A stretch of 64,000 bases of DNA from Planctomycetota bacterium (GTDB taxonomy: Bacteria; Planctomycetota; UBA8742; UBA2392). Made by a program: the position numbers and the translations under genes. The DNA lies in NCBI GenBank assembly GCA_020848275.1, contig JADLAK010000012.1, positions 37,301-101,300 on the forward strand, read 5' to 3'. Below are positions 3,751-62,442 of this stretch, one piece after another; position 1 is the stretch's first letter; each line of letters begins with the position of its first letter. Below the pieces are notes generated by a model. That model saw only the letters and a list, made by a program, of their open reading frames with translations. It did not search any database and had not been told where the DNA came from.

Positions 3751-3767
3751 CCAGACACTGGAGCAGA

Positions 3768-6170: not shown

Positions 6171-8215
6171 CCGCCCTCGACCCCAGATTCGCAGCAGCCG
6201 CCAAGGGCAAGCCCGGTGCGCCCATTGGCGGCGACGAATTCCTCGCCGCGCTGGCAAAGGGCGAAAGCGTCGAGGCGCGGCAGTTGATCGGCGTTTCAAT
6301 GCAGGGCGCGGACCTGCGCGGCCGCAACCTTAGCGGTTGCATGATCGACAACGTTGATTTCAGCGGCGCGAATCTTGCTGGCGCAAACCTCAGCGACTGC
6401 ATGCTGACGCTGTGCAAGCTCGGCAACGCCAATCTTTCGGGCGCAAATCTCAAGGACGTGTTGTGGGCGCAATGTGAATTCAACGGCGCGAATATCGAGG
6501 GCGCGACGCTCGACAAGTCGCTCTGGGCGGAATGCAAGGGAGTGAACCTGCGCGCGCGCGGCGCCAAGGGCCCGGCGCGCATGGCCCAGTGTGAATTTCC
6601 CGACGCGGATTTTACGGGCGCGAGTTTTGACGGCATGGTCGTGGTCAAAAGCACGTTTACCGGCGCAAAGTGCGGCGGCGCGAGTTTCATCGACGCATGG
6701 CTGCCGGATTGCGCCTGGGCCGGGTCAGATTTCACCGGCGCCGATTTGTCGAAGGCCAGCTTCGAGGGCGGCGACATGGCGGGCGCAAAGTTTGAGAACG
6801 CCAACCTGAACTGGACCGTGCTTTCCTACTGCAACCTGGAGAAAGCGTCGTTCCAGGGCGCGAAGTTCGTGCGCTCCCAGTTGGACAACTGCAAGCTCGC
6901 GGGCGCAACCGGCTGGCCAAAATTGATCGAGAACATCGATTTCGAGGACGCCGACCTCGCGGGCCAGGCATTCAAGGAAATCGAGTTCAACCGCTGCAAT
7001 TTCAGCGGCGGCAAACTCGGCAAGATCGACTTCAGCGGCGCGCGCGTGTTGTCCTCGAATTTCAACAAGGCCGACCTGAAACAGGCTAACTTTGAAGGCG
7101 CATCGCTCGAGACCTGCCGCTTCGGCGAGGCCGACCTGACCGGCGCAAACCTTAGAAAAGCCAAGCTGCCCGGCTCGCGCCTGCGCAGCGCGCAACTTGC
7201 GGAAGCCGTGTACACCGGCGCGTCCTTTTGGGGCGCCGACGTCAGCCTTGCGCACTTCAACCCCCGTTCGTTGATTGCGGGCGCGATCGACGGCGCGCGC
7301 TTTGAAGGCGCAAATTTCGATGGCGTCGATTTCTCCGGCCGCAATCTGACCAACACCGCGTTCATCAAGTGCTCGCTGGTCGGCGCAAAGTTCGCCAACG
7401 CGCAGCTCACCAGCGCCAATTTCTCCGGCAGTGACCTCTCGGGCGCGGATCTTTCGGGCACGCGCAACGAGGCCGCGGGTTTTGAGAAGAGCAAACTCGT
7501 CAACGCGGATTTCAGCGGAGCGGTCATGTCCAGCGCGTTCTTTGCCGAGGCGCAACTTCAGGGTGCGAAATTCCACGGCACGCGCATGGAACGCACGACG
7601 CTGAAGGATTCGACCTTTGCGCAGGCGAGTGTCGAAAGGGCCTCGCTGCGCCAGTGCAACCTGCAGGGGCTGAATTTTGCCAGGCGCAGTTTTGCGGGCT
7701 GCGACTTTTCCGGCTCGGATTTCAGCGGCAGTGAGATGTCGGGCGTCGACCTTTCCGGCTGCGCGCTCGAAAACGCTTCGTTCAACGCAACCATCCTAAA
7801 AGACGCGAAGTTCCGCGATGTCATCGGCAAGACAATCAAGTTCGCCGATGCACAGCTTGGCGGCGCAAGCTTCGAGAACGCGCAGATCAGCGGCTCGTTC
7901 TTTGCCGGCGCATATGCGCAGAAATGCAACTTCACCGGCGCTGACCTGCGCATGTGCATCTTCGAAAAGGCCGACCTGCGCAACAGCCGCCTCGCCAACG
8001 CGCGCCTCAATTACGCCGACCTCAGCTACGCGCACCTCGACCTCAGCGATTTTTCCGGAGCCGACGTGCAGGGCGCGAATCTGCACGGCGTCGGCGAGCA
8101 GGGCACGATCTGGCGCAACGCCAACACCAGGGGTGCGCGCCGCAGCGACGACGAACGCCTGAAAGCGGACGCTTTCAAGCCGCCAAGGCCCAAGGTTACG
8201 GGAGACAAGGTATGA
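6167..8215 (+). CDS. Pentapeptide repeat protein of about 682 aa. Nearly the whole length consists of A(D/N)LxG repeats.
   Basis: The start codon overlaps the upstream stop (ATGA at 6167-6170). There are more than 100 consecutive pentapeptide units (GADLRGRNLSGCMIDNVDFSGANLAGANLSD...). Confidence 0.8.
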   Translation: MTALDPRFAAAAKGKPGAPIGGDEFLAALAKGESVEARQLIGVSMQGADLRGRNLSGCMIDNVDFSGANLAGANLSDCMLTLCKLGNANLSGANLKDVLWAQCEFNGANIEGATLDKSLWAECKGVNLRARGAKGPARMAQCEFPDADFTGASFDGMVVVKSTFTGAKCGGASFIDAWLPDCAWAGSDFTGADLSKASFEGGDMAGAKFENANLNWTVLSYCNLEKASFQGAKFVRSQLDNCKLAGATGWPKLIENIDFEDADLAGQAFKEIEFNRCNFSGGKLGKIDFSGARVLSSNFNKADLKQANFEGASLETCRFGEADLTGANLRKAKLPGSRLRSAQLAEAVYTGASFWGADVSLAHFNPRSLIAGAIDGARFEGANFDGVDFSGRNLTNTAFIKCSLVGAKFANAQLTSANFSGSDLSGADLSGTRNEAAGFEKSKLVNADFSGAVMSSAFFAEAQLQGAKFHGTRMERTTLKDSTFAQASVERASLRQCNLQGLNFARRSFAGCDFSGSDFSGSEMSGVDLSGCALENASFNATILKDAKFRDVIGKTIKFADAQLGGASFENAQISGSFFAGAYAQKCNFTGADLRMCIFEKADLRNSRLANARLNYADLSYAHLDLSDFSGADVQGANLHGVGEQGTIWRNANTRGARRSDDERLKADAFKPPRPKVTGDKV

Positions 8216-11621: not shown

Positions 11622-11706
11622 CGTAACTATTGATTTCAGAAGCTTTTGCGGCGTCGTGCCGTGTCATGGTGAAAGCATCGAGAAATTACGTCTATTCTTC
11701 CGATGG

Positions 11707-11734
11707 TTGACTGGAGGGTTGAAGGCCATATACT
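11707..11734 (+). promoter_or_regulatory. Sigma70-like promoter (TTGACT-N16-TATACT) upstream of the ImmA-like gene, inside the low-GC islet.
   Basis: TTGACT at 11707-11712 and TATACT at 11729-11734. An AGAAGGG RBS precedes the ATG at 11790. Confidence 0.35.
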
Positions 11735-11789
11735 TTCGCGCCACAATAGTTGGCAGTTGGGTAGGCGCCGGACAGAAGGGTGTAAAACC

Positions 11790-12212
11790 ATGTTGAATGC
11801 AGTCGATGTTCATGAAATTTGTGATCAGCACAATATCGACGTTCAAGAAATTGAATTAGGCGAATGTGCAGGATTCATTTCCTGCACGTCTGATAAGTGG
11901 GTCATTTCGGTAAACAAGGGTGATCCGCTAGTTCGACGTCGTTTCACAATAGCGCACGAATTGGGACATTTTTTTCTCCACTTAAGTCGGGGCTCGGTTC
12001 GAATTGATCGACCGCTCCATCGAAGCATTAATGCGTCGAACTCCGCGCAGGAGCGAGAGGCAAATGCATTTGCTGCAGCTTTGTTGATGCCCGCCAATGT
12101 CTTGCAAGCTGCTGTGAATGAAGGAAAGCCGACAAACGTCTTGGCGAGGGAGTTGTTGGTTTCCGCGTCTGCGCTGAGTTGGAGGCTTCAAGACCTTGGC
12201 CTGAAGAAGTGA
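11790..12212 (+). CDS. ImmA/IrrE-family (DUF955, COG2856) zinc metallopeptidase, about 140 aa.
   Basis: HEXXH motif HELGHFFLH followed by ...EREANAFAAALLMP, typical of ImmA/IrrE. It lies in a lower-GC segment. Confidence 0.7.
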   Translation: MLNAVDVHEICDQHNIDVQEIELGECAGFISCTSDKWVISVNKGDPLVRRRFTIAHELGHFFLHLSRGSVRIDRPLHRSINASNSAQEREANAFAAALLMPANVLQAAVNEGKPTNVLARELLVSASALSWRLQDLGLKK

Positions 12213-12254
12213 TATCTGACAAACGGCCAAATACGCAGTGCCGCCAGAAGTCGT

Positions 12255-14639
12255 TTGTGGCGGCACTTTTTATTGGGTTTGCCAATGCTTGATCAAGAAT
12301 TGATTCGCGGCGTCGAGGCAATCTCAGATTCGTCCAACGAAGCTGAGGTCGAAGACAAGGTCGTTCTCCCTCTTCTGAAACGATTTGGGATAACGGCGAA
12401 TGACTTCATTCCGCAAGGCGAAATTCCGCGACTAGATATCGCCAAGGGAGTGGAAGTCAAGAGAGCTTTTCTTCCGGACTACCTGCTGACTTTTTTCGGG
12501 CTCTATGTTGCAGTGATTGAGGCGAAGTCTCCCAGCGAGTCGGTGCAAAATGCATATAGAGAGGCGTGTTTCTATTCAACCGAACTTCACCGTCAACTTG
12601 GCACATTAACAGATGTCAAGGTTGCCGTGGGCTGCAACGGTCGCGAAATTTGGGTAGGAACTCCTGAAACTTCCGACAAGGACGCCAAGAAATACGATGT
12701 CCGCAAATTGGTATCTAGCCCCACACTTCTGGCCGAACTCGAGGCGTGGATTGGCCGAAAAACATTAAATGACCATGCCAACGAGCGAAGACTGGCACGT
12801 CGCCTTGGGGAGGCTTCAAACGTTAGGACCGACCTCTTTCTTGGTGCGGCCATTCCCAAGAATGAGCACAACTCGTTCTATCCGGCCATTCGACCGTTGC
12901 TGAATACATATTTTGGCAATCTAAGCCTCCTGCGCGATGAGCTGTTCCTAAAGGGGTATTGCGACCCGTCTGAACAGCAGCGAACGCGCGAAGAAGAAGA
13001 TGTTTTGCGTGATCGCCCCCCTGCCCGTTCAGACGCCAAGTTGCTCACGCGACATAACGCTGATGAGTTGGTGGGCGACATAGTTAGGCACTTTCATTCA
13101 TACCATACAGGTGAAGACACCTCCTTTGAGCCGGATCGATTCTTTCTCCTCCTCGGCGCGGCGGGTGCGGGCAAGTCCACATTTACTTGGTGGTACACGA
13201 AGTTCTCCGTCGATCACAAAAAATGTGTCCCGATATTGATTGATGGGACGAAGGCCCCTCAAGACTCGGAACCACTTTTCGCGCACACGTTGCAAAAGCT
13301 CACGAGTACGGTTCACGAATTCCTAGTTGCCAATGTTTACGGAGGTGATCGACAACGGGCTATTCGATCTATATTGCGCGAATCTTGGGAGAAGGACTAC
13401 TACGAGTTCTTTCATCCGAAGATTGAAAAGCCAGATTACTTGGATCAGCACTTTCCAAAGTTAGCAAAGCCGATAAAGGAAAGTGATGAGGTGTTTTTGC
13501 CATTTCTGCTTGAGGATCTACATCGCAACGGGCTTGTCGCCATGCTCATCGTTGACAATTTAGACCTAACCAACGTCGCAAGACAGCTAGATGGGTTTAA
13601 ACTGTTTCGGCCGTTTTCCCAACAATTCGAGGTTCTTATCGGCCTCGTCCTTCGGGACGAGACATGGCAATTTTACGCAAAACGCAAACCTTTCGAGGGA
13701 TTTCATAGCTCTCCAACTTTTTACATCGCCGGACCGTCCCTATCTGAATTGATCGACAAGCGTGTGGAAGTGATGACTGAAGGCCTAGGCCAAACTGGGA
13801 AAAGGAATGTGGTGATCCCATTCGGGGCCAACAAGAACATGAAGTTAGAGCTTTCGATGAAGGACACCGCAGAACTAATTGCAAAGGTCCATGAAGGACT
13901 CTCTAAGCCAGACGACCTGCATTTGATTGAAGGCGTCTGTGGGAAGAACAATCGCAATGGTCTAGACGCGTTTGCTGTTGTCTGTACATCTTCGTACGTC
14001 GAGGAGATCAATCTTCTTCAGCCGACTTTCAAGGTCGGAGCGTTTGACCCCTCGCGAGCGCAGCTGTTGAAAGCGCTGATTTGCGGGGATAGTAAGTACT
14101 ACGATTCACATTCGAGCTTTGTGGCGAATGCCTATACATTTGGCCAGGGAACAGACGGGTCAAGCATTTTTGTGGTACTCCACATACTTCGAGAACTGCT
14201 TTTTAAAGCCGGAGGCACTCCTGGATTCGGAAAGGGCTATGTGCCCCTTACGGACCTACAGGAGTTGTTGATGAAGTGGCTTCCGCTCGATGTTTCCGAG
14301 TTGCGTCGCATTACATTTGGAATCGTACGGACGGGGATTTGGCAAGTAGACACGTTTGAGCCAACATCCGAATCAGATTTCAATGCGGTTCGAATTCAAG
14401 AGCAGGGATTGTATCTGTTGAAGACCTTGTACAAGGATGACACGTACCTCGAATGCATGGCATTCGATACCGCAATAGCGGATCGATTCACGTTGGGAGA
14501 GTTGGTAGAGGCGTTCAAAAGCGATCGACGCTGCTCCGACCTCTTTTTGACCTACCTAAAGGGCAAAGAAGTGATTGAAGTTGAACACGCGTCAGCTAGA
14601 GGATTCAAGCTCGATCCAAGCCGAAAGAAATTCATGTAG
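12255..14639 (+). CDS. Fusion of an HsdR_N-like PD-(D/E)xK nuclease domain and a NACHT/STAND-like P-loop NTPase with a C-terminal uncharacterised domain (794 aa). Candidate defence protein. The true start may be the ATG at 12285 (MLDQ...).
   Basis: N-terminal HsdR_N-type motif (VVLPLLKRFGI...PDYLLTFFGLYVAVIEAKSP). Walker A LLLGAAGAGKST. Walker B-like hhhhD motif MLIVDNLDL (NACHT-like). Low GC. Immediately upstream of tRNA-Leu. Confidence 0.6.
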   Translation: MWRHFLLGLPMLDQELIRGVEAISDSSNEAEVEDKVVLPLLKRFGITANDFIPQGEIPRLDIAKGVEVKRAFLPDYLLTFFGLYVAVIEAKSPSESVQNAYREACFYSTELHRQLGTLTDVKVAVGCNGREIWVGTPETSDKDAKKYDVRKLVSSPTLLAELEAWIGRKTLNDHANERRLARRLGEASNVRTDLFLGAAIPKNEHNSFYPAIRPLLNTYFGNLSLLRDELFLKGYCDPSEQQRTREEEDVLRDRPPARSDAKLLTRHNADELVGDIVRHFHSYHTGEDTSFEPDRFFLLLGAAGAGKSTFTWWYTKFSVDHKKCVPILIDGTKAPQDSEPLFAHTLQKLTSTVHEFLVANVYGGDRQRAIRSILRESWEKDYYEFFHPKIEKPDYLDQHFPKLAKPIKESDEVFLPFLLEDLHRNGLVAMLIVDNLDLTNVARQLDGFKLFRPFSQQFEVLIGLVLRDETWQFYAKRKPFEGFHSSPTFYIAGPSLSELIDKRVEVMTEGLGQTGKRNVVIPFGANKNMKLELSMKDTAELIAKVHEGLSKPDDLHLIEGVCGKNNRNGLDAFAVVCTSSYVEEINLLQPTFKVGAFDPSRAQLLKALICGDSKYYDSHSSFVANAYTFGQGTDGSSIFVVLHILRELLFKAGGTPGFGKGYVPLTDLQELLMKWLPLDVSELRRITFGIVRTGIWQVDTFEPTSESDFNAVRIQEQGLYLLKTLYKDDTYLECMAFDTAIADRFTLGELVEAFKSDRRCSDLFLTYLKGKEVIEVEHASARGFKLDPSRKKFM

Positions 14640-14684
14640 GGCTCACACGCGGCTCGGAATGCGCTTTGTCGGGTCACAATCATA

Positions 14685-14768
14685 CGGACGTGGCGGAATG
14701 GCAGACGCGCCAGACTTAGGATCTGGTGAGGCAACTCGTGTGGGTTCAAGTCCCACCGTCCGTACCAT
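14685..14768 (+). tRNA. tRNA-Leu (anticodon TAG), type II with long variable arm, CCA encoded.
   Basis: Manual fold. Acceptor ACGGACG/CGTCCGT. D-arm GCG-GAATGGCAGA-CGC. Anticodon stem CCAGA/TCTGG with loop CTTAGGA. 13-nt variable arm. T-arm GTGGG-TTCAAGT-CCCAC. Discriminator A, then CCA. Closely resembles E. coli tRNA-Leu. Confidence 0.85.
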
Positions 14769-14813
14769 TCGACTCGGAAGGCGCTCGTCAGAGCGACTTC
14801 CGAGTCGAATGGT
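14766..14813 (+). terminator. 16-bp perfect inverted repeat (CCATTCGACTCGGAAG ... CTTCCGAGTCGAATGG) with a 16-nt loop, overlapping the tRNA-Leu CCA end. No U-tract follows.
   Basis: Seen directly in the sequence. Function is uncertain (terminator or processing structure). Confidence 0.3.
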
Positions 14814-15130
14814 ATCCTGAGCGAGCGCAGCGAGAAAAAAGCAAAGGCGCGGAGTGCCGGTATTTCTTTAGCATCCACCGCAAGGTGGGTGTTTTCGTCG
14901 GAGAAAACTGGCCGAGGCGCGAAAGCGCCGACACCCGGTGCCGCCGCTACGCGGCTTGGCATCAATTCTGCCCAACCGAAACCACCGCCTTTCGGCGGTG
15001 GCTAAACAGATGACGGCGCTACGCGCCTCACAACTTTTCCGCCGGACCGCTTCTGTCCTCGCGAAGCTTCGCTGAAGCTTCTGCTCGGCCCCGCTCCCTG
15101 TGGTCGCCACGCGCGGCTCGTAAAAGGCCG

Positions 15131-46402: not shown

Positions 46403-46466
46403 CTCATGCTGGTTGCCGTGGCGGCGCGTGTTCTATATCGTCGCGCGCGGTCCGGTACGGCCAACC

Positions 46467-47882: not shown

Positions 47883-47986
47883 GCGTTGCCGTGGCGGCGC
47901 TTGTTCTGTACCGTCGCAGGCGCAGGGGACTGTCCCAGCGAGCATAGCGAGCGTGCGGACTGTCCCCGTCTCATGACGGGCATAGC

Positions 47987-52331: not shown

Positions 52332-54404
52332 ATGCCCGGCGTGACGGCGGCTCTTCCAATCAAGTTCAACTTCCAGCGCGTCCTGGATGCAGGCGTGTCC
52401 GTTGTCGTCCTGCGCACTGCGGCACCCGCGGCCCTGCCGGGACCGGTTTCCGGCCTTGCGCAGGCCCTGGCGCGCTCGCGCGCCGAGGTTGTCGCGCTTG
52501 CAGCCGGGCCCTATCGTTATCCTTACGCCGCAGCGCTGGAACTTTCGCGCATGCTCAACGGCGGCAACCTGCCGGGCCCGGTGATGGGCGCGGAGAGCCT
52601 GTCGCGTTCGCGCCTCGCGCAGGCATTGCTGCCGCACCTCAAACGCCTGGTTGTTTTGCGCATCGCACGCCTGGAGTGGGTTGATACCGAAAGCCTCACG
52701 CTGCTTGCGGCGTTGATCGAGACCTCGCGCGCGATTGCGTCGGCGGGCCACAAGGGCCGCTGGTGGGCGGTTTGCGGCCTCGGTGCGGGCACCCCGACAG
52801 ACCGCATGGGGTCGCTGCTGGACCCCGCGCTGGCGCTTTGCAGCGACGTTGAGCCGCCCGCCCAGCTACCGGCTTCCGTCAGCCCGCAGGAGCGCAGGCT
52901 GATGGCGGTGCTTCATGCGGCGCCGCATCCGCTGCCGCTGCCGACGGCGTTTGCCTGCGCGGGCTTGTCAGAGGAAACTGCGGGCGTGGCGTTGCGTCGC
53001 CTTGCCGGCGCGCAACTCATCGATTCGGGGCCGCGCCTTGGGCTGGGTTGCGCAGCGGACACGGTGGCGCTGCAGGCGGACGAACTGAACCGTGCGCGTG
53101 CGGCGCTTACGGAATTCAGCGAAGCCGACGTCCCGGAGTCGCGCCTTGCGCTTGCGGGCGAGCAGGCGGGCAGCGTGTTGCGCGCGCTGTCGTGGCAGCT
53201 TGGCCAGCGCGCCCTTGAGGAAGGCGAGCCGAACCTTGCGCTGGCGCGTATGCGCCAAAGCGGAAAGCTCAGCGGGCGCGGATGCGACGAAATTATTTAT
53301 GCGCGGGCGTTGGCGCGCGTCGGCGCGCTCGATTCCGCGCTGGGCATCCTCGATCAATCGCGCCACGAACCCGCGGACGCGCGCATGCAGCTTGAGCAGG
53401 CGCGGCTGGCCTTTGACCTTGCGATGGCGGGGCGGGTTGGCGCGCGCGACGCCGAAAAAATCCTGCGCCGCGTCGAGCGCCTCGGGCGTTCAGGCCGCGG
53501 CATCGATTGTTGCATCGAAGTTCGCGCCATGCGCGCCGAGATCATGCTGCGCCGCAAGGATGTTCCCCGCGCCCTGGCGCTGTTGCGCCGCCGTCCGCCG
53601 GGAAGCCTGCAGACCGCTTCGCCCGCGGCGCGCCACCGCTTCCTCGTCGCCAAGGCGCGCACGTTGCTGGCATCGGGGCGCGCTACCGCCGCCCACCAGT
53701 GCCTTGACGAGTTGCGCGCCATCCCGCGCAGCGACGCCGAGATGCTGGCGGTCGAACACCTGGCGCTGGCGTCATTGCCCGGCCGCGACGAGGCCCTGGC
53801 GGCGCACAAGCGCGCCCTTGTGCTTGCGGCGCGTGTGCTCGATGCCCGCGCGGTGAGCGCCCACGCCCGGGCGCTCGGCGCCGAGGCGGTCGCGGTGCTT
53901 GCGTCGGTGCTCGGGCGCGCCGATGGCGCGGCGATGGCCGACGGCGGAGACCCGCGCCTGAACGCGGCCACGGCGTGGCATTGGTTTTCCGCGCGCGGCG
54001 CAACGCTGCTGGCGACGCTCGAGGGCGAGCACGCATCGATTTTTCCGCCGGAGGCACGCGCCAACCCCGGCCTGTGCGCTTGGCTTAAAGTCGTGTTGTC
54101 GCGCGTCGGCCGCCACGCGGGCGCGCAACTTATCCAGCTTTCGCCCATCCCTAATGCCGGGAATTTCGGCGGCGACCTGCTGCTGGTGTCGCCGGGTTTC
54201 GGCCGCGTCGGGCCCACGGTGGTCGCGCTCAAGCGTGAGCAGTTCAGCGACTCGACCGAACTCCTGCGTGTTGCCAGCGACCCGCGCGCGTTGCTGCAGC
54301 GTGCGCTGGACGGCGGCGAACTTGAACCCGCCGCACTGCGCGCCTGGCTCGACGATTGGGAACGCGCCCGCTTCCCCGACATCTCGGCCCAGCATGCCCG
54401 CTGA
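52332..54404 (+). CDS. Hypothetical Ala/Leu/Arg-rich protein (690 aa).
   Basis: Longest ORF in the region and co-directional with the next gene, which it overlaps by 11 nt. No recognisable motif. The high-GC composition makes frame assignment less certain. Confidence 0.4.
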   Translation: MPGVTAALPIKFNFQRVLDAGVSVVVLRTAAPAALPGPVSGLAQALARSRAEVVALAAGPYRYPYAAALELSRMLNGGNLPGPVMGAESLSRSRLAQALLPHLKRLVVLRIARLEWVDTESLTLLAALIETSRAIASAGHKGRWWAVCGLGAGTPTDRMGSLLDPALALCSDVEPPAQLPASVSPQERRLMAVLHAAPHPLPLPTAFACAGLSEETAGVALRRLAGAQLIDSGPRLGLGCAADTVALQADELNRARAALTEFSEADVPESRLALAGEQAGSVLRALSWQLGQRALEEGEPNLALARMRQSGKLSGRGCDEIIYARALARVGALDSALGILDQSRHEPADARMQLEQARLAFDLAMAGRVGARDAEKILRRVERLGRSGRGIDCCIEVRAMRAEIMLRRKDVPRALALLRRRPPGSLQTASPAARHRFLVAKARTLLASGRATAAHQCLDELRAIPRSDAEMLAVEHLALASLPGRDEALAAHKRALVLAARVLDARAVSAHARALGAEAVAVLASVLGRADGAAMADGGDPRLNAATAWHWFSARGATLLATLEGEHASIFPPEARANPGLCAWLKVVLSRVGRHAGAQLIQLSPIPNAGNFGGDLLLVSPGFGRVGPTVVALKREQFSDSTELLRVASDPRALLQRALDGGELEPAALRAWLDDWERARFPDISAQHAR

Positions 54405-55137
54405 TTCTCCCGAAGCCCTCCTGCGCCGCGCGCTCGACCAGGCGCTGGCGCTCACGCCGCCGCACTACGGCATGGACCGCAGGGCTTACGTCTCGCGGTT
54501 GCATGAACTTGCGGCGGGCATCGAATCGCTGCGCAAGGCGGTGAAGGCCAAGGACCGCAAGGACTTGCCTGAAATCAGCGGCGTGAACCAGTTGGTCGAT
54601 CTTTCGGGCAAAGATTTCACGCGCCAGCGCGAGGAAATCGTCGCCGAACTGCAGGCGCTGGCCGAAAAACTGATGGCGCGCATGCGCAGCGCCCCGCCGG
54701 AGCTGATCGAGGCCCTGCGCGCCGTCGGCGGCGAGGCTTCCGCGGCGCTTGAACGCGACGCGCACGAGGCGTGGCGCAGTTTTCATTCGGGCGCGTACAA
54801 GGCCGCCGTCGTGATGGCCGGCGCGACGCTCGAGGGGTTAATCCAGGAAGCCTGCGCGAGGCTGCCGCAAGCGGCGGCGATCCATGCGCGGCTGTTTGCG
54901 GGCCGCGCGGGCGACAAGCAGCCGCGCAGCTTTACCGTCGATGAAGGTTTGAGCGTGCTGCGCGAGGCGGGGAAGTTGACTTCAGCGATCACGCACGTGG
55001 GCCGCGGGCTCAAGGAGATGCGCAACCTCGTGCACCCGGATGTGCAGCGCCGCCAGCGTGCGCCAATTTCCGCCAGCCACGCAACGCTGGCGTTACAGGC
55101 CCTTTGCACCCTGGCCGAAGAGCTTGCCCGGGCCTAG
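54394..55137 (+). CDS. Hypothetical protein (247 aa). Its last 7 codons are duplicated at 58021-58044.
   Basis: Start MPADSPEALL overlaps the upstream gene. The C-terminus ...LAEELARA* is repeated downstream of the mcrBC cassette. Confidence 0.4.
   Translation: MPADSPEALLRRALDQALALTPPHYGMDRRAYVSRLHELAAGIESLRKAVKAKDRKDLPEISGVNQLVDLSGKDFTRQREEIVAELQALAEKLMARMRSAPPELIEALRAVGGEASAALERDAHEAWRSFHSGAYKAAVVMAGATLEGLIQEACARLPQAAAIHARLFAGRAGDKQPRSFTVDEGLSVLREAGKLTSAITHVGRGLKEMRNLVHPDVQRRQRAPISASHATLALQALCTLAEELARA
55111..55131 (+). repeat. Left copy of a 21-bp direct repeat (CTGGCCGAAGAGCTTGCCCGG) flanking the McrBC cassette.
   Basis: Matches 58021-58041 (CTGGCAGAAGAGCTTGCCCGG) at 20 of 21 positions. 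Both copies are followed in frame by TAG. Confidence 0.8.
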
Positions 55138-55149
55138 GAAACGTCGCAG

Positions 55150-56181
55150 CTACGCGGGAAGCAGGCCCATTAACCGTCGCCGCACTTCCGGCCACGGACA
55201 GTTAAGATCGACGGTACAGACCCGAATGCGCTGGCCATGCACGCGATATTCAAGGTCAAGCGTTCGATCCACAGTCGGATACAGCAAAATGCCTTCGACG
55301 TCCCGCAAGGGGTCGCCGCGTCGCAGCATGTTCACAACGTAGATATAGAGTTGATTTAGGTTGTCGCTGCGAACCCTGTTACCGCCGAAGCGATTCTCGG
55401 CGAGCGATTGGCCATAGAACTTCGCATCAATCACCACGACGCGTGAATCCCTGCACAGGGTTACATCCGTCTCCAAGCGCGGCAAGAAGGCTAGGTCCTC
55501 GTCGCTCGCCTCGACATCGTGCCAATTGAAGTGCCGGTCGCCTTCGTACCAATCACGGCATTCACGCCTATAGAAATTCCGCACGAAGGCTTCGAAAAGT
55601 CTTTCGAGTTCTGTGTCCGAGAAGTCTGAGAATTTCAAGCTGCCATCGCGCTGATCCGGGAACATGTGGTCGAAGATGAATCGACATATGCGCAGCAGCA
55701 ACGCGTAGCGCGGGCCACTGCGCTGCAACATGGCTGAGTGAAAGTGATCGGAGTTCAGCGGAATCTCGCCGATAGAACGAAGGCGGCGATCAAGGCCGCT
55801 GAGTTGCGCCGCTAAGCCTTCGTCGAGGTCTGCGCGACGAAGCAGGCGAAGGATGGTAGTTCGCACGATCTGGTTGCTCAGAGTGTCATGGTTGAGGTCG
55901 TCAAAGCGGCAGAAGGTGCGGCCTTGCGGTAATACCAGTGCTTTGACCGATTCGCCAAAATCGATGCGCCCGCGCAGCCCCGCAACTTGCTCAGATTGCG
56001 TTGCATATTCCCGCCTCAGGCCGCGTCGCAACTGGTCATCCATGCCATGGATAAGCACGCGTGCGAACAAGTCCATCAACGTTGTTGGGCCTGCAACGTC
56101 GGCGGCCACAGCGTCCCCTACGTCAAGGAAGTCCCAGGCGTACAGCAGCAGGTAATAGATGTTGGCTATCGGAATATTCAT
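55150..56181 (-). CDS. mcrC: McrC-like PD-(D/E)xK nuclease subunit of an McrBC-type modification-dependent (type IV) restriction system.
   Basis: N-terminal IPIANIYYLLLYAWD block typical of McrC. PD-(D/E)xK core ...VVIDAKFY. 4-nt overlap with mcrB. Confidence 0.7.
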   Translation of the reverse strand: MNIPIANIYYLLLYAWDFLDVGDAVAADVAGPTTLMDLFARVLIHGMDDQLRRGLRREYATQSEQVAGLRGRIDFGESVKALVLPQGRTFCRFDDLNHDTLSNQIVRTTILRLLRRADLDEGLAAQLSGLDRRLRSIGEIPLNSDHFHSAMLQRSGPRYALLLRICRFIFDHMFPDQRDGSLKFSDFSDTELERLFEAFVRNFYRRECRDWYEGDRHFNWHDVEASDEDLAFLPRLETDVTLCRDSRVVVIDAKFYGQSLAENRFGGNRVRSDNLNQLYIYVVNMLRRGDPLRDVEGILLYPTVDRTLDLEYRVHGQRIRVCTVDLNCPWPEVRRRLMGLLPA

Positions 56182-57935
56182 GCCATAAGCCGCGCAACTT
56201 GGTCGCGAACCTCTTCCGGACGATCGAACCAGTACTCTTCGAGTAGGGGTTTGATTTCGTGCTGCACGACATCTTTGAACCAGAACTGATCGAGCGGATT
56301 GTCTTCCAGATTTTCACCGGGCATCGCGCAAAAGTAACTATGACCGATTTGGTATCCATGTCCGAGGCTTCGGGTATCGGCAGCGATTGTCCGATTCAAG
56401 GTGGTCATGCGTTCTACGATTCGTTTCACCAAGTCGGGCTCTGCGCCTCGCGACTCAAGGTGCTGGCGAAAACGTGCTGAAGTGAATGAGGGTTCCAGTG
56501 TGAAAAAAAGAAAACGCCGACGCAAAGCGTAATCGATCATCGCAAGCGATCTATCGGCGGTGTTCATCAGCCCGATCAGGCATAGGTTTTCAGGGACGAA
56601 AAACGCTTCGCCATCGACCGAGTAGGTTAGCGGTATTGCGTGGTCGGCGCCGCGCTTGTCCGGCTCTATCAACAGCATGAGCTCGCCGAAGATCTTAGAC
56701 ACATTGCCACGGTTGATTTCATCGATGATGAAGACGTATTGCCGAGTTGGTTCGGCGGTCGCCTTGCGGCAGAAGCGGTGAAAGACGCCGTCCTGCAGTG
56801 CAAACCGGCCATCATTCGTGGGGCGATAGCCTTGGACGAAATCCTCGTAGGCATAGGACGGATGGAACTGCACGGCTTGCACGCGGCTTGGATCCTGGAC
56901 GCCAAGATGGGCGTATGCAAGACGCCGTGCGGCAAATGACTTTCCCACACCCGGCGGCCCTTGGAGAATCACGTTCTTTTTCCGCTTGAGCCCTCCAGCA
57001 ATCGCGTAGAGAACGCTGTCGTCGACGAACAACTCCTCGATGACGTGATTGAGATCGTAGCGTCGGGTTGCAGGAGTCTCCGGTGTTGCAGCAGCTGCGG
57101 GTTGAGTGGAGGGCGACGCGGATTTCCCTGCTGGCTCGGATTCCTCCTTGTCAACAATCCATCGTTGGCGCAGCGGCGGCCCGTAGAAGTCGAGTACCTG
57201 CGAAGGGTATTCGGACTGAAGTTTCTGCCGCAGGTTGAAAAGGGCGTCATCGAGAGACTTGTCATCATTACTTCCAGGTGCGGCGCCGAATCCTTCCAGG
57301 GCTCGCCACTTTTCACCCGTCGAACACATTCGCTCCACCCGATCGGGAAGCGCGAAGTAACGCAACATGTGTCGGAATTGGCGATTCTCCTCCCTGCGCA
57401 CTCGGTCGATCAGGTTCGTGAGCCGGTCGTAGTCGCCAATCACGCTTTGTCGGTTGGAGGGGAACTTGTTTTTGAATTCGGCCATCAGGTTGATCAGAAA
57501 TCTCATTTCGAGCCAGAAGTTGTTGTTGTAACCCTGGCCGCCCGAGCCGATGCCCCGCAGCACCTCTTCTGTCACTAGCGGATGATTGGCGGGAAAAGGC
57601 AACCCGGACAACTCCCATGTTTCCCGTATGGGCCGGAGCTTGGTGGATGCCTTGAGATTTGAAGGGAACAGCTTGGCTGCCCAAAGCATCTCCGCGGCAA
57701 GCTGCTGGGCTGCGGGTGAAACGTGTTTCAACTGGCGCTGGAATTTTTCGTCGAAGGACCCTTCGCCTTCATCCGGCATTTCGACGAACGCTTTCCTCAG
57801 CTCTTCGATGTTTGCTGGAGTCCACAACGATTGTTCTGAGAAGATCGAACCGTCTCCGATTAGGCATCGGTCAATCCAGGATTTTGCGGCGTTGAGGATT
57901 GGGCTGAAATCACGATCGACTGATAGGCGGGCCAT
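56178..57935 (-). CDS. mcrB: McrB-like AAA+ GTPase subunit (585 aa) with a non-canonical N-terminal domain of about 300 aa.
   Basis: Walker A ILQGPPGVGKSF. McrB signature FIIDEINRGNVSKIFGEL. MNTADRS arginine finger region. The N-terminal domain is unrelated to the E. coli McrB DNA-binding domain. Confidence 0.8.
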   Translation of the reverse strand: MARLSVDRDFSPILNAAKSWIDRCLIGDGSIFSEQSLWTPANIEELRKAFVEMPDEGEGSFDEKFQRQLKHVSPAAQQLAAEMLWAAKLFPSNLKASTKLRPIRETWELSGLPFPANHPLVTEEVLRGIGSGGQGYNNNFWLEMRFLINLMAEFKNKFPSNRQSVIGDYDRLTNLIDRVRREENRQFRHMLRYFALPDRVERMCSTGEKWRALEGFGAAPGSNDDKSLDDALFNLRQKLQSEYPSQVLDFYGPPLRQRWIVDKEESEPAGKSASPSTQPAAAATPETPATRRYDLNHVIEELFVDDSVLYAIAGGLKRKKNVILQGPPGVGKSFAARRLAYAHLGVQDPSRVQAVQFHPSYAYEDFVQGYRPTNDGRFALQDGVFHRFCRKATAEPTRQYVFIIDEINRGNVSKIFGELMLLIEPDKRGADHAIPLTYSVDGEAFFVPENLCLIGLMNTADRSLAMIDYALRRRFLFFTLEPSFTSARFRQHLESRGAEPDLVKRIVERMTTLNRTIAADTRSLGHGYQIGHSYFCAMPGENLEDNPLDQFWFKDVVQHEIKPLLEEYWFDRPEEVRDQVARLMA

Positions 57936-58020
57936 GGCAATCTCCGGGAAACGTCTGGCAGGATCATATCCTGTGCTGCGACACCTCCGGTCGCAGAATC
58001 AACCGAATCGATTTACCTCA

Positions 58021-58041
58021 CTGGCAGAAGAGCTTGCCCGG
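58021..58041 (+). repeat. Right copy of the 21-bp direct repeat flanking the McrBC cassette.
   Basis: CTGGCAGAAGAGCTTGCCCGG followed by TAG. It duplicates the 3' end of the gene at 54394..55137. Confidence 0.8.
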
Positions 58042-58105
58042 TAGGTTTCATTGACTTGCGGTATATTTGGACTAACCTTGTCGGACTTATTTTCGCGAGG
58101 CGTTC

Positions 58106-59518
58106 ATGGCCGTACCGCTGTCACAGATGTGGACCGTCGCCAGCTACGTCATCGGCCAGAAGCTGCGGGGCAACAAGCATTACCCGCTGGTGCTGATGCT
58201 CGAGCCCCTGTACCGCTGCAACCTGGCCTGCGCCGGCTGCGGCAAGATCCAGTATCCCGCGCACATCCTGAAACAGGAAATGGACGTCGATGTCGCCATG
58301 CGCGCCGTCGACGAGTGCGGCGCGCCGATGGTCAGCATCCCCGGCGGCGAGCCCCTGATGCACACCAAGATTGGCCAGATCGTCGAAGGTCTCGTCAAGC
58401 GCAAGAAGTACATCTACCTGTGCACCAACGCTCTCCTTCTAAAGCAGCGTCTCCAGGAAGGCGTTTTAAAACCCAGCAAGTACCTGACGATCAACGTCCA
58501 CATGGACGGCGACGAAGAAGCCCACGATTTCGCGGTCTGCCGCGAAGGCACGTACAAGGTCGCCGAAGAAGCGATCCAGTTGGCGATCAAGATGGGTTTC
58601 AGGGTCACGACGAATTCCACCATCTTCAAACAGGCTGACACCGAGCACATGCGCAAGTTCTTCGACCGCATGATGGAAATCGGCTGCGAGGGCATCACCG
58701 TCAGCCCCGGCTACAACTACCAGAAGGCGCCCGACCAGGAGAGCTTCCTGCGCGAACGCCAGAGCACCACCGAACTTTTCAGGGCGTTCTTCAAGAAGGC
58801 GCCCAGGCGCTGGAAGTTCAACCTCAGCCCGCTGTTCATGGAATTCCTCATGGGCAAGCGCCATCTCGAGTGCACGCCCTGGGGCTGCCCCGCGTATTCC
58901 ATCTTCGGCTGGCAGCGCCCCTGCTACCTGTTGCAGGAAGGCTACGCCAAGACCTTCAAGGAACTTATTGCCGAGACGAAGTGGGAAAATTACGGCCGCG
59001 CGTCCGGCAACGCCAAATGCCAGAGCTGCATGGTGCATTGCGGCCACGAGCCCAGCGCCGTCAACGCGACGTTTTCCAGCATCGGCGGCTTCTTTGCGAC
59101 GGCCAAGGCGACGCTGTTCGGCGTCGACAGCGACAAGGGCCGCAACGTCACGCCGCCCGCGGTTACGCGCAACGTGGTCACCGGCGTTGATGCAAGCTGC
59201 ACCGACGAAATCACGCGCCAGTTGATGGAAGCCGTCGACTTCCGCGGCGACGTCACGATCACGACCATCGATGGCGCCAAGCAGGCCGGCTACATCTTCA
59301 ACTACGACGAGCAGTCGGTCGAATTCTTCCCCAGCGGACGGCCCGACGTCGTGACGCTCAGCCGCAAGCTCGTGGCCAAGATCGAAAAGACCGGCCGCGA
59401 CACCGCCGACGGCAAGAGCTACGAGGCGTGGCTGAAAAAGTACAACGAGCGCAAAGAAAAACTCGCGCGCGGCGAACAAGCCGAAAGCGTCGACCTGTTC
59501 CCGGAAGTCCTGTCGTAG
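58106..59518 (+). CDS. hpnH: Adenosylhopane synthase HpnH (radical SAM), with a C-terminal extension of about 90 aa.
   Basis: N-terminus VASYVIGQKLRGNKHYPLVLMLEPLYRCNLACAGCGKIQYP is typical of HpnH and includes the CxxxCxxC cluster. 470 aa, versus about 380 aa typical. Confidence 0.85.
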   Translation: MAVPLSQMWTVASYVIGQKLRGNKHYPLVLMLEPLYRCNLACAGCGKIQYPAHILKQEMDVDVAMRAVDECGAPMVSIPGGEPLMHTKIGQIVEGLVKRKKYIYLCTNALLLKQRLQEGVLKPSKYLTINVHMDGDEEAHDFAVCREGTYKVAEEAIQLAIKMGFRVTTNSTIFKQADTEHMRKFFDRMMEIGCEGITVSPGYNYQKAPDQESFLRERQSTTELFRAFFKKAPRRWKFNLSPLFMEFLMGKRHLECTPWGCPAYSIFGWQRPCYLLQEGYAKTFKELIAETKWENYGRASGNAKCQSCMVHCGHEPSAVNATFSSIGGFFATAKATLFGVDSDKGRNVTPPAVTRNVVTGVDASCTDEITRQLMEAVDFRGDVTITTIDGAKQAGYIFNYDEQSVEFFPSGRPDVVTLSRKLVAKIEKTGRDTADGKSYEAWLKKYNERKEKLARGEQAESVDLFPEVLS

Positions 59519-59529
59519 CAGGAAACCAG

Positions 59530-59611
59530 CCCCGGCCGGCAGGCCGGGGGATTAATCACGGACGTTCTTCTGATCAGCTTCCCCCGCCCTGCCGGGCGGG
59601 GCTGTTTTTAT
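59530..59611. terminator. Two adjacent GC-rich hairpins between convergent genes, likely a bidirectional terminator. Hairpin 2 is followed by TGTTTTTATT on the plus strand.
   Basis: CCCCGGCC-ggca-GGCCGGGG at 59530-59549. CCCCGCCC-tgcc-GGGCGGGG at 59582-59604, followed by a T-run. Confidence 0.55.
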
Positions 59612-62442
59612 TCATCCCAGCTTGTTTTCAGCGTGTTGTCCGAGGCGATCTCCACCCACAAGCCATCTTTGGTGAAGCGGATGCGGAAGCCGTCGTCCGA
59701 GGGAATGATCTCGATGGCTTCGGCGTCGACGCTGCCAAAGCCGCCCTCGCGCGCGGTGGTTTTCAGCCGAGCCTGGAGTTCGGCGTCGGCCTTTTCGCCG
59801 TAATCAGCGCCGCGGAAGGCCGCTTCGCTGTAGCTCTTGATGTCGCCGTTCTTTTTCAGCTCAAGGATGCGGTCGGCGACTTCGCACACGCCATAAAGCT
59901 GCTGGCAAACCTCGATGCGCTGGCGCCATTCCGGCGACGGCGGATCAGCGGGCGTCGGCACTTCCACCAGGCGCTCGCCGCGGCCGTTGGCCAGCCGCAG
60001 GGCGTTGAACTGGTCGTCGGTCAGGTACGCAGTCTGGTACCCGCCGTCGGCATGCAGCAGCGCGAGGCGGCCCTTGCGCGCCCACGAGCCGTGCTGGGCG
60101 CAGACCATCCAGACATCGTACTGGATTCCGCGCCCGCCACGACCGCCGCCTCCAATTCCAATAGAACGTCCCGCCGGCGGCTCCTCCGGCGGTGGCTCGA
60201 TGTCTTTGGTCGAGATATCCGGCGGCACGCCAAACCACGCGTAGCCGCACTCCGCAAGCGAAGCGTCTTCGGGCCTGGCGTCGGCCCTGGGCCCAAGTTC
60301 GCCGCCGCGTTTGGCAAGCATGGCCTGGAACCGATCGGCGAGCAGCGGGTCAAAGGCGCTGCGCAAGCCGTCATAAGGCTTGAGGTGGCCGTCTTTCTCG
60401 AGGCTTTCGAGCGTGACTTCGGCCAGCGCCTTCTTGAGTTCATCCGGTTTCAACTGCGAAAGTTTCGGGCGCACGGCCTGCAGCCACGCGTCGCAGGCGC
60501 GGCGCATTTCGGACAACACGGCGTCGTCGTGGCGCCTGGCGCGGTCGAATTCGGCTTCACTCGCGATTTCGTCCAGCAGTGTGCGCAGGTTCAGGTCGCC
60601 GCTGAGCGTGCCGTGCAGGCCCAGGCTCTGCGTCTGTTCGTCGGTCGAAACGGTCAGCCGCAGGCCCGAACGCAGCAGCTTGCGCACATTGAGCTGGAAT
60701 CCGGGCACGCGCAGCGGCTGATTGTCCCAGGACCTGCGCCCCTCCTGCGACAGCGCCAGCACTTCCATCAGGTCCATGTAAAACACCTTGCTGCCGGGAT
60801 GTTCGGCGTTGGGAATGCGCGCGTGCGGCAGCGCGCCGTTGCCCGCCGAGGCCGCCAGCACGCGCACCGCGACGTCTTCGCAGCCCGCAAAGCCAAGAAT
60901 ACCGTCGCCGATGAACACGCACTGCGATTGCCAGCCGCCGCGCATGCACAGGATGTCGCCGCCCTGCACGTGGCGCGTGACCCACCATTGGCGCTGGATG
61001 TGGTCCGGTGAACGGCCCTGCTGCTCCATTTTCTGGATAAACGCGAGGATCTTGTCTTTCAGGTCCGTCACGTCAGTGCGCGTCTGCACCGCCGCAAACA
61101 TGCAGTAGTTGGAGTCCATGCCGCCAAGTGATGCGCCGGGCAGCATGATGTTGCCGACGGCGAGTTCGCCGCCCAGCGGCGCCAGCACCTGGTCGAGGTC
61201 CAGCTCCATGCCCTTAAGGCTTTCAAGCAGGCCGTCCATCGTGCGCTCCGAGCCCGAGATGTCGGTGATGCCCGCGGCAAGCCGGCTTTCCTTGCTTGGC
61301 TCAAAGGGGCGTGACTTGCTGTCCTCCAGCCGCTTCTGCGCGGCGTCGAGTTGCGCCTGCATCGCCTTCTTTTCGGTCTCGAGTTTTTCGCGTTCGTCCT
61401 TGGCGTCGTCCTTGAGCCCCGCGATGGATTTGTCGATCTCGTCGATGCGGCGCTTGCAACGTTCGATTTCTCCCTCGCATTCGCGAGCGACGCGGCCGAG
61501 TTCCTGGTCGTGGAAGAACGAAAGCGTGTCGATCAGCGTCTTCTTGTGGTCGTTGCCGAGCTGCGCCATCGCCATCATCACGATTTCGCGCGGCAGGCGC
61601 CGGTGCAGCGAAAAGCTGCCCGCGGGCTTCATCATGAACCCGAGCGAGCCCCAGGGCTCGGTCAGGATCATCTGCGCGCTGAGGTGGACCTGGCTATCAG
61701 TGCGGCCGGGAAATTCGCCGTAAATCGAGAGGTAATCCCAGCGGTGCCATTCGAGGGCTTCGAGCACCTCAAGCGGCTTGCTTGCGGCGTCGCGGCCCAG
61801 GCGGTCAAGCGCCGAGCGAAACGCGCGCATGTCCGCGAACATCACGAGTTCGCCCTTGGCGCTCTTGGACCAACCCTGGAAGCGTTTGGTCTCGCTCAGG
61901 CTTTCGTCGACGCGGCCCTCACGCACGTCGTTGACGTGCTGCATCAGCGCGGGCGTGGTCGTCACCGCCATCATGCCGGGAAACAGCGAGAGGCAGAACA
62001 TGTCGGATGTGACGTTCGTGGGCGTTGCCTTGCTCTTGTCGCCCATCTTGGCCGCGAACTCGACGAAGTCTTTGCTGAATTCCTTGGGCGCGTTGTCGGC
62101 CAGGTCGATGATGATGACCAATTGCGCGTGGGGCGCGCGCACCATCACGTCGGCGACGCCGATTTCGGTCTTGCGCGCGTGGCGCGCAAAGCGCATGAAC
62201 TCGGCAAACACCAGGCCGCCACGCTTTTTGTAGTCCTCTTCGGGCGCCGTCGCAAGCCAACGCGCCAGCGGAACCTCGAAGTCATCGCCCGCCATCTTGG
62301 TCAGCGCCGCGCCGAGGTTTTCGATGCGAACGTACGCCAGCGAATTGCGCGGGGCGTAGTCGCCAGGCTGGCGTTCGCGGGCCAATAGCGGCGTCGCCGC
62401 AATCACGGCGAGGGCGAGGGTGAACGCGAGGCGGGTCTTCAT
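59608..62442 (-). CDS. Large secreted hypothetical protein (944 aa) with a central coiled-coil region.
   Basis: Signal peptide MKTRLAFTLALAVIAATPLLA. K/E-rich coiled coil (ERCKRRIDEIDKSIAGLKDDAKDEREKLETEKKAMQAQLDAAQKRLED). Non-artefactual composition. Confidence 0.55.
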   Translation of the reverse strand: MKTRLAFTLALAVIAATPLLARERQPGDYAPRNSLAYVRIENLGAALTKMAGDDFEVPLARWLATAPEEDYKKRGGLVFAEFMRFARHARKTEIGVADVMVRAPHAQLVIIIDLADNAPKEFSKDFVEFAAKMGDKSKATPTNVTSDMFCLSLFPGMMAVTTTPALMQHVNDVREGRVDESLSETKRFQGWSKSAKGELVMFADMRAFRSALDRLGRDAASKPLEVLEALEWHRWDYLSIYGEFPGRTDSQVHLSAQMILTEPWGSLGFMMKPAGSFSLHRRLPREIVMMAMAQLGNDHKKTLIDTLSFFHDQELGRVARECEGEIERCKRRIDEIDKSIAGLKDDAKDEREKLETEKKAMQAQLDAAQKRLEDSKSRPFEPSKESRLAAGITDISGSERTMDGLLESLKGMELDLDQVLAPLGGELAVGNIMLPGASLGGMDSNYCMFAAVQTRTDVTDLKDKILAFIQKMEQQGRSPDHIQRQWWVTRHVQGGDILCMRGGWQSQCVFIGDGILGFAGCEDVAVRVLAASAGNGALPHARIPNAEHPGSKVFYMDLMEVLALSQEGRRSWDNQPLRVPGFQLNVRKLLRSGLRLTVSTDEQTQSLGLHGTLSGDLNLRTLLDEIASEAEFDRARRHDDAVLSEMRRACDAWLQAVRPKLSQLKPDELKKALAEVTLESLEKDGHLKPYDGLRSAFDPLLADRFQAMLAKRGGELGPRADARPEDASLAECGYAWFGVPPDISTKDIEPPPEEPPAGRSIGIGGGGRGGRGIQYDVWMVCAQHGSWARKGRLALLHADGGYQTAYLTDDQFNALRLANGRGERLVEVPTPADPPSPEWRQRIEVCQQLYGVCEVADRILELKKNGDIKSYSEAAFRGADYGEKADAELQARLKTTAREGGFGSVDAEAIEIIPSDDGFRIRFTKDGLWVEIASDNTLKTSWDE

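Follow-up and report, generated by a model that had tools for sequence, protein, structure and literature searches.

An mcrBC restriction operon lies at the 3' end of a conserved planctomycete gene, bracketed by two 21-bp direct repeats, and we interpret these repeats as a target duplication made when the operon inserted by a recombinase-independent route, rather than as recombinase attachment sites; we place the probability of this interpretation at about one half. The operon is foreign in composition and intact, the slot that it occupies is empty or differently filled in related clades, and the right-hand repeat copy stands in the ancestral context of the gene end. The class of event that fits best is insertion with (long) target duplication, which is known for restriction units of types I–IV. 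The arrangement described in the initial annotation is correct, and the locus is a new example within an already described class. Coordinates are given in Table 1 and refer to the window, the whole 64-kb stretch of DNA that was analyzed, which is part of a 110-kb contig.

Table 1. Features of the mcrBC locus and its immediate neighbors, in positions of the window.
Feature	Coordinates	Strand	Evidence
Target gene, 247 aa	54394..55137	+	C-terminal HEPN fold
Direct repeat copy 1, last seven sense codons (LAEELAR)	55111..55131	+	Sequence, family alignment
Left junction: GCC TAG (extra Ala codon and present stop) and 12-bp spacer to mcrC stop	55132..55149	+	
mcrC	55150..56181	-	PF10117 1.5e-24; NCBIfam McrC 7.8e-94
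mcrB	56178..57935	-	AAA_5; NCBIfam McrB 5.8e-98
85-bp region upstream of mcrB, right end of inserted DNA	57936..58020	.	
Copy 2 and TAG, non-coding relic at ancestral 3' end of target gene	58021..58044	+	
Conserved hpnH upstream region; ATTGACT box at 58050-58056	58050..58105	+	blastn, alignment
hpnH (adenosyl-hopene transferase), conserved right neighbor	58106..59518	+	TIGR03470 6.5e-150

Organization of the mcrBC locus

The 247-aa gene to the left of the operon is kept in a small planctomycete clade, always downstream of a partner gene of 590–700 aa, and its composition is uniform right up to its end. The initial annotation had the mcrC-mcrB pair lying alone between the repeat copies, in about 2.89 kb of modestly lower GC, and this is accurate: the insert spans 2889 bp, contains only these two genes (both transcribed leftwards, with a 4-bp overlap), and has a GC content of 0.559 against 0.62, the neighbors being at 0.61–0.71. 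The GC3 of the insert is 0.64–0.67, against 0.80–0.87 in the neighbors. The 85-bp right end of the insert is without similarity to the target gene, and a sigma-70 promoter scan of both junctions gave no matches.

McrC combines an N-terminal region of the DUF2357 type with a PD-(D/E)xK nuclease, looks intact, and aligns over its full length to E. coli McrC (6hz4) at 1.4e-59, with the ETD...IDAKFY residues kept. McrB has a GTPase AAA+ domain with Walker A (GPPGVGKS) and NTAD motifs, the latter corresponding to the NxxD motif as defined previously (PMC11090510). The operon thus resembles McrBC of E. coli K-12 in its Walker A/NxxD McrB GTPase, its PD-(D/E)xK McrC, and the position of mcrB upstream of, and overlapping, mcrC, but differs from it at the N-terminus of McrB, where an all-alpha domain (residues 1 to about 264) is fused to the AAA+ domain. 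A Pfam search with McrB residues 1–285 gave no match, so a DUF3578/ADAM reader is not present, and a model of the N-terminal domain had no match among solved structures; N-terminal domains vary across the McrBC family (PMC11090510).

The cassette is an intact type IV restriction operon of foreign origin, and its predicted activity would be modification-dependent DNA cleavage. The nearest database relative of McrC is about 45% identical, and in plasmid and phage searches for a donor of the cassette only the AAA+ core was matched. We considered whether the repeats are a hallmark of this McrBC subfamily and rejected the idea, as the relatives L053 and L055 are without bracketing repeats.

Sequence and frequency of the direct repeats

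Copy 1 (CTGGCCGAAGAGCTTGCCCGG) is followed by GCC and the TAG stop codon of the 247-aa gene, and copy 2 (CTGGCAGAAGAGCTTGCCCGG, 58021–58041) is followed directly by TAG (58042–58044). The copies are identical at 20 of 21 bases, the longest exact common run being 15 bp and the single mismatch (C/A) lying on the outer left side; if a 3-bp indel (GCC) is allowed, the similarity reaches through TAGG, making 25 bp that include the stop codon. The seven repeat codons encode LAEELAR, the conserved C-terminal end of the target family, and copy 1 sits within the last predicted helix of the protein (residues 227–246). Reading of the sequence and the family alignment therefore agree with the original description of the repeats as a duplication of the last seven codons of the upstream gene. 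The repeat can be written GAAGAGCTTGCCCGG; an empty site would be expected to read ...TTTGCACC-CTGGCMGAAGAGCTTGCCCGG-TAGGTTTCATTGACTT, and a hypothetical circle junction of the cassette would read ...TTTACCTCA-CTGGCAGAAGAGCTTGCCCGG-GCCTAGGAAACG...

Two direct 21-mer pairs with at most one mismatch and less than 6 kb apart were observed in the whole window, compared with 0.025 per window expected from 40 second-order Markov simulations of the window (a look-elsewhere test). The 21-mer pattern itself matches twice in the window at three or fewer mismatches and not once in 100 shuffles, with no further copies in the 64 kb beyond these two. A metagenome collection yielded 39 single matches, all of them unrelated (tblastn, blastn), and viral contigs yielded none. 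Within the window and these collections the 21-mer is not a frequent sequence, and a dispersed REP-like element, which the initial annotation had named as a finding that would speak against insertion, was rejected on these counts. Dyad symmetry of the 21-mer is not above background, and a XerCD/dif-like or otherwise dyad-symmetric core was rejected on this basis; no terminal inverted repeats pair the two ends of the insert.

The insertion slot in related genomes

Three states of the slot between the 247-like gene and hpnH are seen. In a related planctomycete clade (P0015/P0016; loci L006–L010) the slot is empty, and the 247-like gene is directly followed by hpnH, with 79 bp separating the two genes. 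In a sister clade (L001, L003–L005, and L011–L013) the slot holds an endonuclease-III-like gene, and in the genome described here it holds mcrBC. The hpnH orthologues in all related loci are 61–83% identical. In L007 and L009, where the gene end is uninterrupted, this end and the ATTGACT box upstream of hpnH align colinearly with copy 2 and its right flank; the box is invariant in all six of the loci compared and lies 6–7 bp from copy 2; DNA homology with the sister clade restarts at 58050 (blastn). These comparisons support an insertion into the slot.

The target protein in the nearest relatives is 46–57% identical, and the 21-mer is not conserved there at the DNA level. The collections searched contained no true empty site from a close relative (the nearest 247-aa homologue being the one at 57% identity), and no record matched the 247-aa protein or HpnH exactly. 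These collections also contained no mcrBC-bearing genome with the cassette in this slot, and no relative in which mcrBC is present here without the repeats, the other observation that the initial annotation had named as contrary to insertion.

The sister-clade cargo was called a 'nicking endonuclease' by PADLOC, which we reread as an EndoIII/HhH-GPD glycosylase; a defence hotspot at this slot is therefore not demonstrated. A possible short duplication (TCATTGA) in the sister clade is too short to judge.

Origin of the repeats

We propose that the foreign mcrB-mcrC operon entered at the extreme 3' end of the conserved HEPN-fold gene, at the junction where the gene stop lies 6–7 bp from the hpnH upstream box, and that the final 21 bp of this gene were duplicated in the process (25 bp if the stop is counted and a later 3-bp indel is allowed). 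The left side would keep an intact gene end, and the right side the old gene end together with the untouched hpnH promoter region; as the duplication leaves both ends whole, both neighbors would survive the insertion. Possible sources of the duplication include the filling-in of a staggered break and replication-based repair; the GCC and the C/A difference would probably be later changes. The second repeat-bracketed gene described below, whose 38-bp repeat is unrelated, points to target duplication that is independent of sequence.

Several points weigh against target duplication. At 21–25 bp the repeat is below the >30 bp cut-off of Furuta et al. and has a length that recombinase core sites also show. 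The GCC TAG following copy 1 resembles an element-supplied gene end, and otherwise calls for a later 3-bp insertion or a coincidence of about 6% (a stop codon is reached within two codons in only 5.8% of the reading-frame entries into the insert). At the protein identities given above, the nearest relatives offer no true single-copy target at the DNA level, the recombinase search covered 64 kb of the 110-kb contig, and the mechanism of long target duplication is itself not known.

Less probable is site-specific integration. Here an attP mimicking the final codons of the gene and its stop would have been carried by the cassette, or by a larger element of which the cassette is what remains, and integrated by a tyrosine or serine recombinase encoded elsewhere, so that copy 1 (with GCC TAG) would be attL and copy 2 attR. 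Att cores typically have the length of this repeat, the two copies cease to match at the stop codon, with an in-frame stop one codon past copy 1, and the position of the single mismatch at the outer left is as expected for a crossover within the identical core of 15 bp. In copy 1 the codon GCC agrees with that of relatives (GCC/GCT) and with the high host GC3, whereas GCA stands in the copy next to the element. Some McrC relatives also lie near an integrase or transposases, genes to which mcrBC is frequently linked (PMC2993543). However, neither the cassette, which the initial annotation had already reported to be without an integrase, nor any of the 47 ORFs of the window yielded an integrase, recombinase, or transposase domain. 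Inside the repeats, non-coding DNA is limited to 12 bp between the stop codons of the target gene and mcrC and an 85-bp stretch separating copy 2 from the mcrB ATG, and decay of a larger element to mcrBC would need near-perfect deletion end points. Moreover, the 21-mer has no dyad symmetry beyond background, the core was not found at other related loci in the metagenome and viral collections, no bracketing repeat was seen around the sister-clade cargo of the same slot, and the nearby second bracketed gene has a different repeat. The site-specific insertion signature proposed initially is thus retained in part: the slot states and the position of copy 2 support the footprint of an insertion where the upstream gene ends, whereas an integrase-type origin with an element-supplied gene end is not specifically supported, in view of the recombinase search, the lack of unusual dyad symmetry and of terminal inverted repeats, the McrBC relatives without repeats, and the unrelated 38-bp repeat. 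An integrase acting in trans keeps some probability.

Homology-driven capture of the operon appears improbable. A donor relative with mcrBC downstream of its own 247-aa orthologue would have provided a fragment or circle that recombined on one side within the gene (or through gene-end homology, in Campbell fashion) and on the other side by an illegitimate joint, stranding 21 bp of the recipient as copy 2. The two copies would then be orthologous gene ends (LAEELARA-stop and LAEELAR-stop), with the substitution and the in-frame 3-bp difference explained without extra events; the location of copy 2 in the ancestral context of the recipient and the uniform composition of the gene to its end, as for a close donor, are in agreement with this. 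It needs two events, however, an insertion in the donor and then an unusual one-sided recombination, and with homology on both flanks an ordinary double crossover would be favored, which would leave no repeat. A length of 21 bp lies at the lower limit for homologous recombination, which also counts against capture, and no donor-like genome with mcrBC in the slot was present in the collections searched.

It is very unlikely that the cassette moved as a non-autonomous transposon, mobilized in trans by a transposase that makes an unusually long target-site duplication. Restriction units behaving like transposons have been described (Furuta et al., PMC2853133), and IS1630 makes duplications of 19–26 bp (cited in PMC2853133). 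The insert has no terminal inverted repeats, no transposase was found in the window, and the duplication, at 21 bp, is not the short one of a typical DNA transposon. Chance similarity or an assembly artefact, which the metagenome-assembled source and the common k-mer size of 21 might suggest, can be set aside as extremely improbable, with about 0.025 such pairs expected per window, an imperfect repeat whose exact run of 15 bp falls below even the smallest k-mers in normal use by assemblers, and both flanks syntenic with relatives, unlike a chimeric join.

Relationships to known systems

Insertion of restriction-modification units with long target duplication was reportedly described by Nobusato et al. 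in 2000. The mcrBC locus resembles the units of that kind in that a lone restriction unit of foreign composition, without a mobility gene, lies between copies of a repeat that is unique within the window and spans the stop codon, and the target gene is intact. It differs from them in its repeat of 21–25 bp, which does not reach the >30 bp cut-off, in its uncultured planctomycete host, and in that distant relatives, rather than a conspecific strain, provide the empty site. Restriction units of types I–IV with direct repeats and no mobility gene, the repeats often spanning a stop or start codon, have been collected previously, including a type IV example in which mcrA is inserted alone in Burkholderia sp. 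383, and integrase-type and long-target-duplication classes were already set apart for them (PMC2853133). The value of >30 bp is an operational cut-off (Furuta, Abe & Kobayashi 2010, PMC2853133), and a 22-bp Helicobacter case was left undecided in that study.

The flanking repeats, the restored gene end, and the att-like repeat length, with a 15-bp identical core as attL and attR would contain, are also reminiscent of integrase-mediated islands, ICEs, and prophages at the 3' ends of genes or tRNAs. Those elements differ from the mcrBC cassette, which has no recombinase or other element genes, is only 2.9 kb, contains almost no spare DNA, and has no second core that could be found. A further likeness is to variable slots between core genes, such as the 'immigration control region' of E. 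coli, in that the slot has three states (empty, EndoIII-like, or mcrBC), but what fills the slot in the sister clade is a glycosylase of the repair type rather than a defence gene, and the genomes are too few to call a hotspot.

The locus is a clean example of a defence operon wedged into a 6–7-bp gap between a gene and the promoter of its neighbor, with neither harmed, and it extends the phenomenon of repeat-flanked restriction units to McrBC and to the Planctomycetes. Taken alone, the mcrBC case leaves existing knowledge unchanged.

A second repeat-bracketed gene

A low-GC island at 11.6–14.7 kb was considered as a parallel case and rejected, as it has no flanking repeats. The only other such repeat pair in the 64 kb brackets a DUF6056 gene located 7 kb from mcrBC, and consists of an unrelated 38-bp direct repeat (33/38). 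Together with mcrBC, this second gene hints at a general gain of genes without a mobility gene, by a mechanism that has been open since 2000. We tentatively suggest that this lineage may repeatedly gain single transcription units by recombinase-independent insertion that duplicates 20–40 bp of the target (21–25 bp for mcrBC and 38 bp for DUF6056) and preserves a gene end or promoter region, although we regard this generalization as doubtful. If genome-wide and population data were to bear it out, long target duplication would not be confined to restriction genes, and the lineage would offer a natural system for studying its mechanism.

Bracketing repeats and cassette content

Features of the mcrBC locus and of other regions in the window
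Feature	Coordinates	Strand	Remarks
ClpV-like AAA+ fragment	25-1050		type VI secretion-related cluster
VgrG	1252-3750		type VI secretion-related cluster
DUF2169 and pentapeptide-repeat proteins	3528-8215		type VI secretion-related cluster
IrrE-like M78 peptidase	11703-12212		low-GC island
794-aa protein	12255-14639		low-GC island; weak HSDR_N restriction-enzyme N-terminal match
38-bp direct repeat	46412-46449 (copy A), 47885-47922 (copy B)		33/38 identical; brackets DUF6056 gene (46413/46467-47882)
Copy 1	55111-55131		CTGGCCGAAGAGCTTGCCCGG, then GCC TAG, the end of the 247-aa ORF (54394-55137)
mcrC	55150-56181	-	PF10117; NCBIfam McrC 7.8e-94
mcrB	56178-57935	-	AAA_5; NCBIfam McrB 5.8e-98 over residues 285-577
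Copy 2	58021-58041		CTGGCAGAAGAGCTTGCCCGG, then TAG
944-aa ORF	59608-62442	-	downstream of hpnH; weak matches to AAA_13 (3.7e-4) and PADLOC PbeC (6e-5)

The repeat copies bracketing the mcrBC cassette are identical at 20 of 21 positions, with an exact run of 15 bp; allowing a 3-bp indel (GCC), the similarity runs on through TAGG to 25 bp including the stop codon. At ≤3 mismatches the window contains two matches to the pattern and the shuffles none, and the direct 21-mer pairs of the whole window (≤1 mismatch, ≤6 kb apart) number two, compared with 0.025 per window in Markov simulations; the repeat is accordingly genuine and not a chance match. The smallest k-mer sizes normal for assemblers exceed 15 bp, which makes an artefact of k-mer assembly unlikely, and both flanks of the cassette are syntenic with relatives.

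Only mcrC and mcrB lie between the copies, overlapping by 4 bp, with 12 bp separating the stop codons of the 247-aa gene and mcrC and 85 bp between the mcrB ATG and copy 2. The mcrC product aligns over its full length to E. coli McrC (6hz4, 1.4e-59) and retains the nuclease motif ETD…IDAKFY, and McrB carries a Walker A motif (GPPGVGKS) and a canonical NTAD motif (NxxD; PMC11090510). The 2,889-bp insert has a GC content of 0.559 and GC3 of 0.64–0.67, compared with a window mean GC of 0.62 and GC3 of 0.80–0.87 in the neighboring genes. The cassette is thus compact, intact and compositionally foreign. The initial annotation had reported the repeat arrangement, the exact two-gene content and the modestly lower GC, all of which hold. 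It had also weighed a common or dispersed 21-mer, which is not seen in the window or in the collections searched: the 39 matches in the metagenome collection are all unrelated single copies, none at related loci, and none was found in viral contigs.

The slot in related genomes

The order of a 590–700-aa gene, a 247-like gene and hpnH is kept in relatives, and the slot between the latter two is found in three forms. In the P0015/P0016 clade (L006–L010) it is empty (79 bp), in the P0003/P0004/P0008 sister clade it is occupied by a minus-strand gene of 220–222 aa, a homologue of endonuclease III/HhH-GPD glycosylases (NF053634, 6e-13; PDB 8a5c, 1e-11), and in the window it is taken up by mcrBC. 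Homology at the DNA level with the sister clade restarts at 58050, 6 bp past the TAG of copy 2, at an ATTGACT box (58050–58056) that is invariant in all six aligned loci, and the last codons in the sister-clade locus L011 (TCA TTG AAG TAG) match TCATTGACT in the window. These correspondences place copy 2 where the gene ended ancestrally, whereas copy 1 lies within the ancestral gene.

In the clade with the empty slot, the 247-like gene ends on a stop codon (TGA) that falls inside the ATTGACT box upstream of hpnH (L007 3370–3385; L009 8770–8785), so that the gene end overlaps the putative -35 region of hpnH, and an insertion at this junction would consequently be survivable only with target duplication. 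We propose an ancestral state in which the gene end abutted the hpnH upstream box, with mcrBC inserting at that junction and duplicating the last 21–25 bp of the gene.

We note that the interval between the EndoIII-like gene and hpnH in the sister clade contains a long near-perfect inverted repeat (L001 11402–11480, L003 9644–9718, L011 9482–9538), with arms of 15–37 nt of the CACCACAGAGA… type, adjoining the conserved box. It is absent from the window and may be an operator or bidirectional regulatory hairpin.

Mode of insertion

We put the probability of an insertion footprint at roughly 0.9. The initial annotation had proposed a site-specific integrative element entering a gene's 3' end. 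Insertion at the gene end is borne out by the relatives, with the slot empty or otherwise occupied and copy 2 in the ancestral position; site specificity is not. A Pfam scan of all 47 greedy ORFs (≥90 aa) in the window finds no integrase, resolvase or transposase domain, in agreement with the cassette having been described as integrase-free. There are no inverted repeats at the insert ends, dyad symmetry of the 21-mer is ordinary (10/21, equalled or beaten by 10.5% of random 21-mers), its core is absent at related loci in the metagenome collection, and bracketing repeats were found neither in two McrC relatives compared at the DNA level nor around the sister-clade cargo of the same slot. No evidence specifically requiring a recombinase was found, and we give about even odds to recombinase-independent target duplication.

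Such events have precedents. Furuta, Abe and Kobayashi sort the direct repeats at restriction units into site-specific recombination, insertion with long target duplication, and chance; the second class is found for types I–IV without mobility genes, its repeats commonly covering a translation start or stop codon, a type IV mcrA inserted alone is also listed, and the mechanism is stated as unknown, with double-strand breakage suggested (PMC2853133; see also PMC2993543 on restriction units). The mcrBC case agrees with this class in every respect but repeat length, its 21–25 bp falling in a grey zone relative to the >30 bp cut-off, which was set to exclude typical recombinase repeats; a 22-bp Helicobacter case was left undecided, and IS1630 duplications are 19–26 bp (PMC2853133). 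By that operational definition it lies outside the strict class, but in our judgement the mode of action is most likely the same. It adds a new phylum, McrBC cargo and a short repeat to a known phenomenon, and would be of wider interest if genome-wide or read-level data showed this lineage repeatedly gaining genes in this way.

An integrase acting in trans is an unlikely but serious competitor. The in-frame stop one codon past copy 1 is as expected of an element-supplied end, and an equally early stop turns up for only 5.8% of frame entries into the insert; the one mismatch sits at the repeat's outer edge, and integrase or transposases occur near some McrC relatives. Against it, a second bracket nearby with a different repeat would need two different absent integrases. 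Homology-facilitated capture from a close relative, the two copies being orthologous gene ends, accounts neatly for the substitution as well as the GCC codon, yet it requires two events and an unseen donor, and we regard it as improbable. Non-autonomous transposition with a long duplication is very improbable, and chance or artefact, set against the repeat counts, is scarcely credible.

A second bracketed gene and other features

Apart from the mcrBC repeat, the second bracket is the window's sole high-identity direct pair, a duplicated intergenic segment that exactly encloses a single DUF6056 gene and is unrelated in sequence to the mcrBC repeat. Copy A begins 10 bp past the stop codon of a 116-aa ORF and either immediately precedes or overlaps the DUF6056 start. 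Copy B begins 2 bp past the DUF6056 stop and lies ~64 bp ahead of the lpxC-fabZ start codon; after each copy, ATGAAAC is found where the next gene starts. The pair may represent a further target-duplicating insertion or, alternatively, a promoter that was duplicated. Given two unlike brackets in 64 kb that contain no mobility gene, sequence-independent target-duplicating insertion is simpler than two absent integrases.

Elsewhere, a low-GC island (11630–14680; GC 0.49 vs 0.62) adjoins the 5' side of tRNA-Leu(tag) (14684–14767), and neither flanking direct repeats nor an integrase were found there; a 24-nt perfect-looking hairpin lies 3' of the tRNA (14763–14814). The 944-aa ORF may, from its weak matches, encode a coiled-coil ATPase. 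Most of the low-identity direct-repeat families of the window stem from the type VI secretion-related cluster (25–8215).
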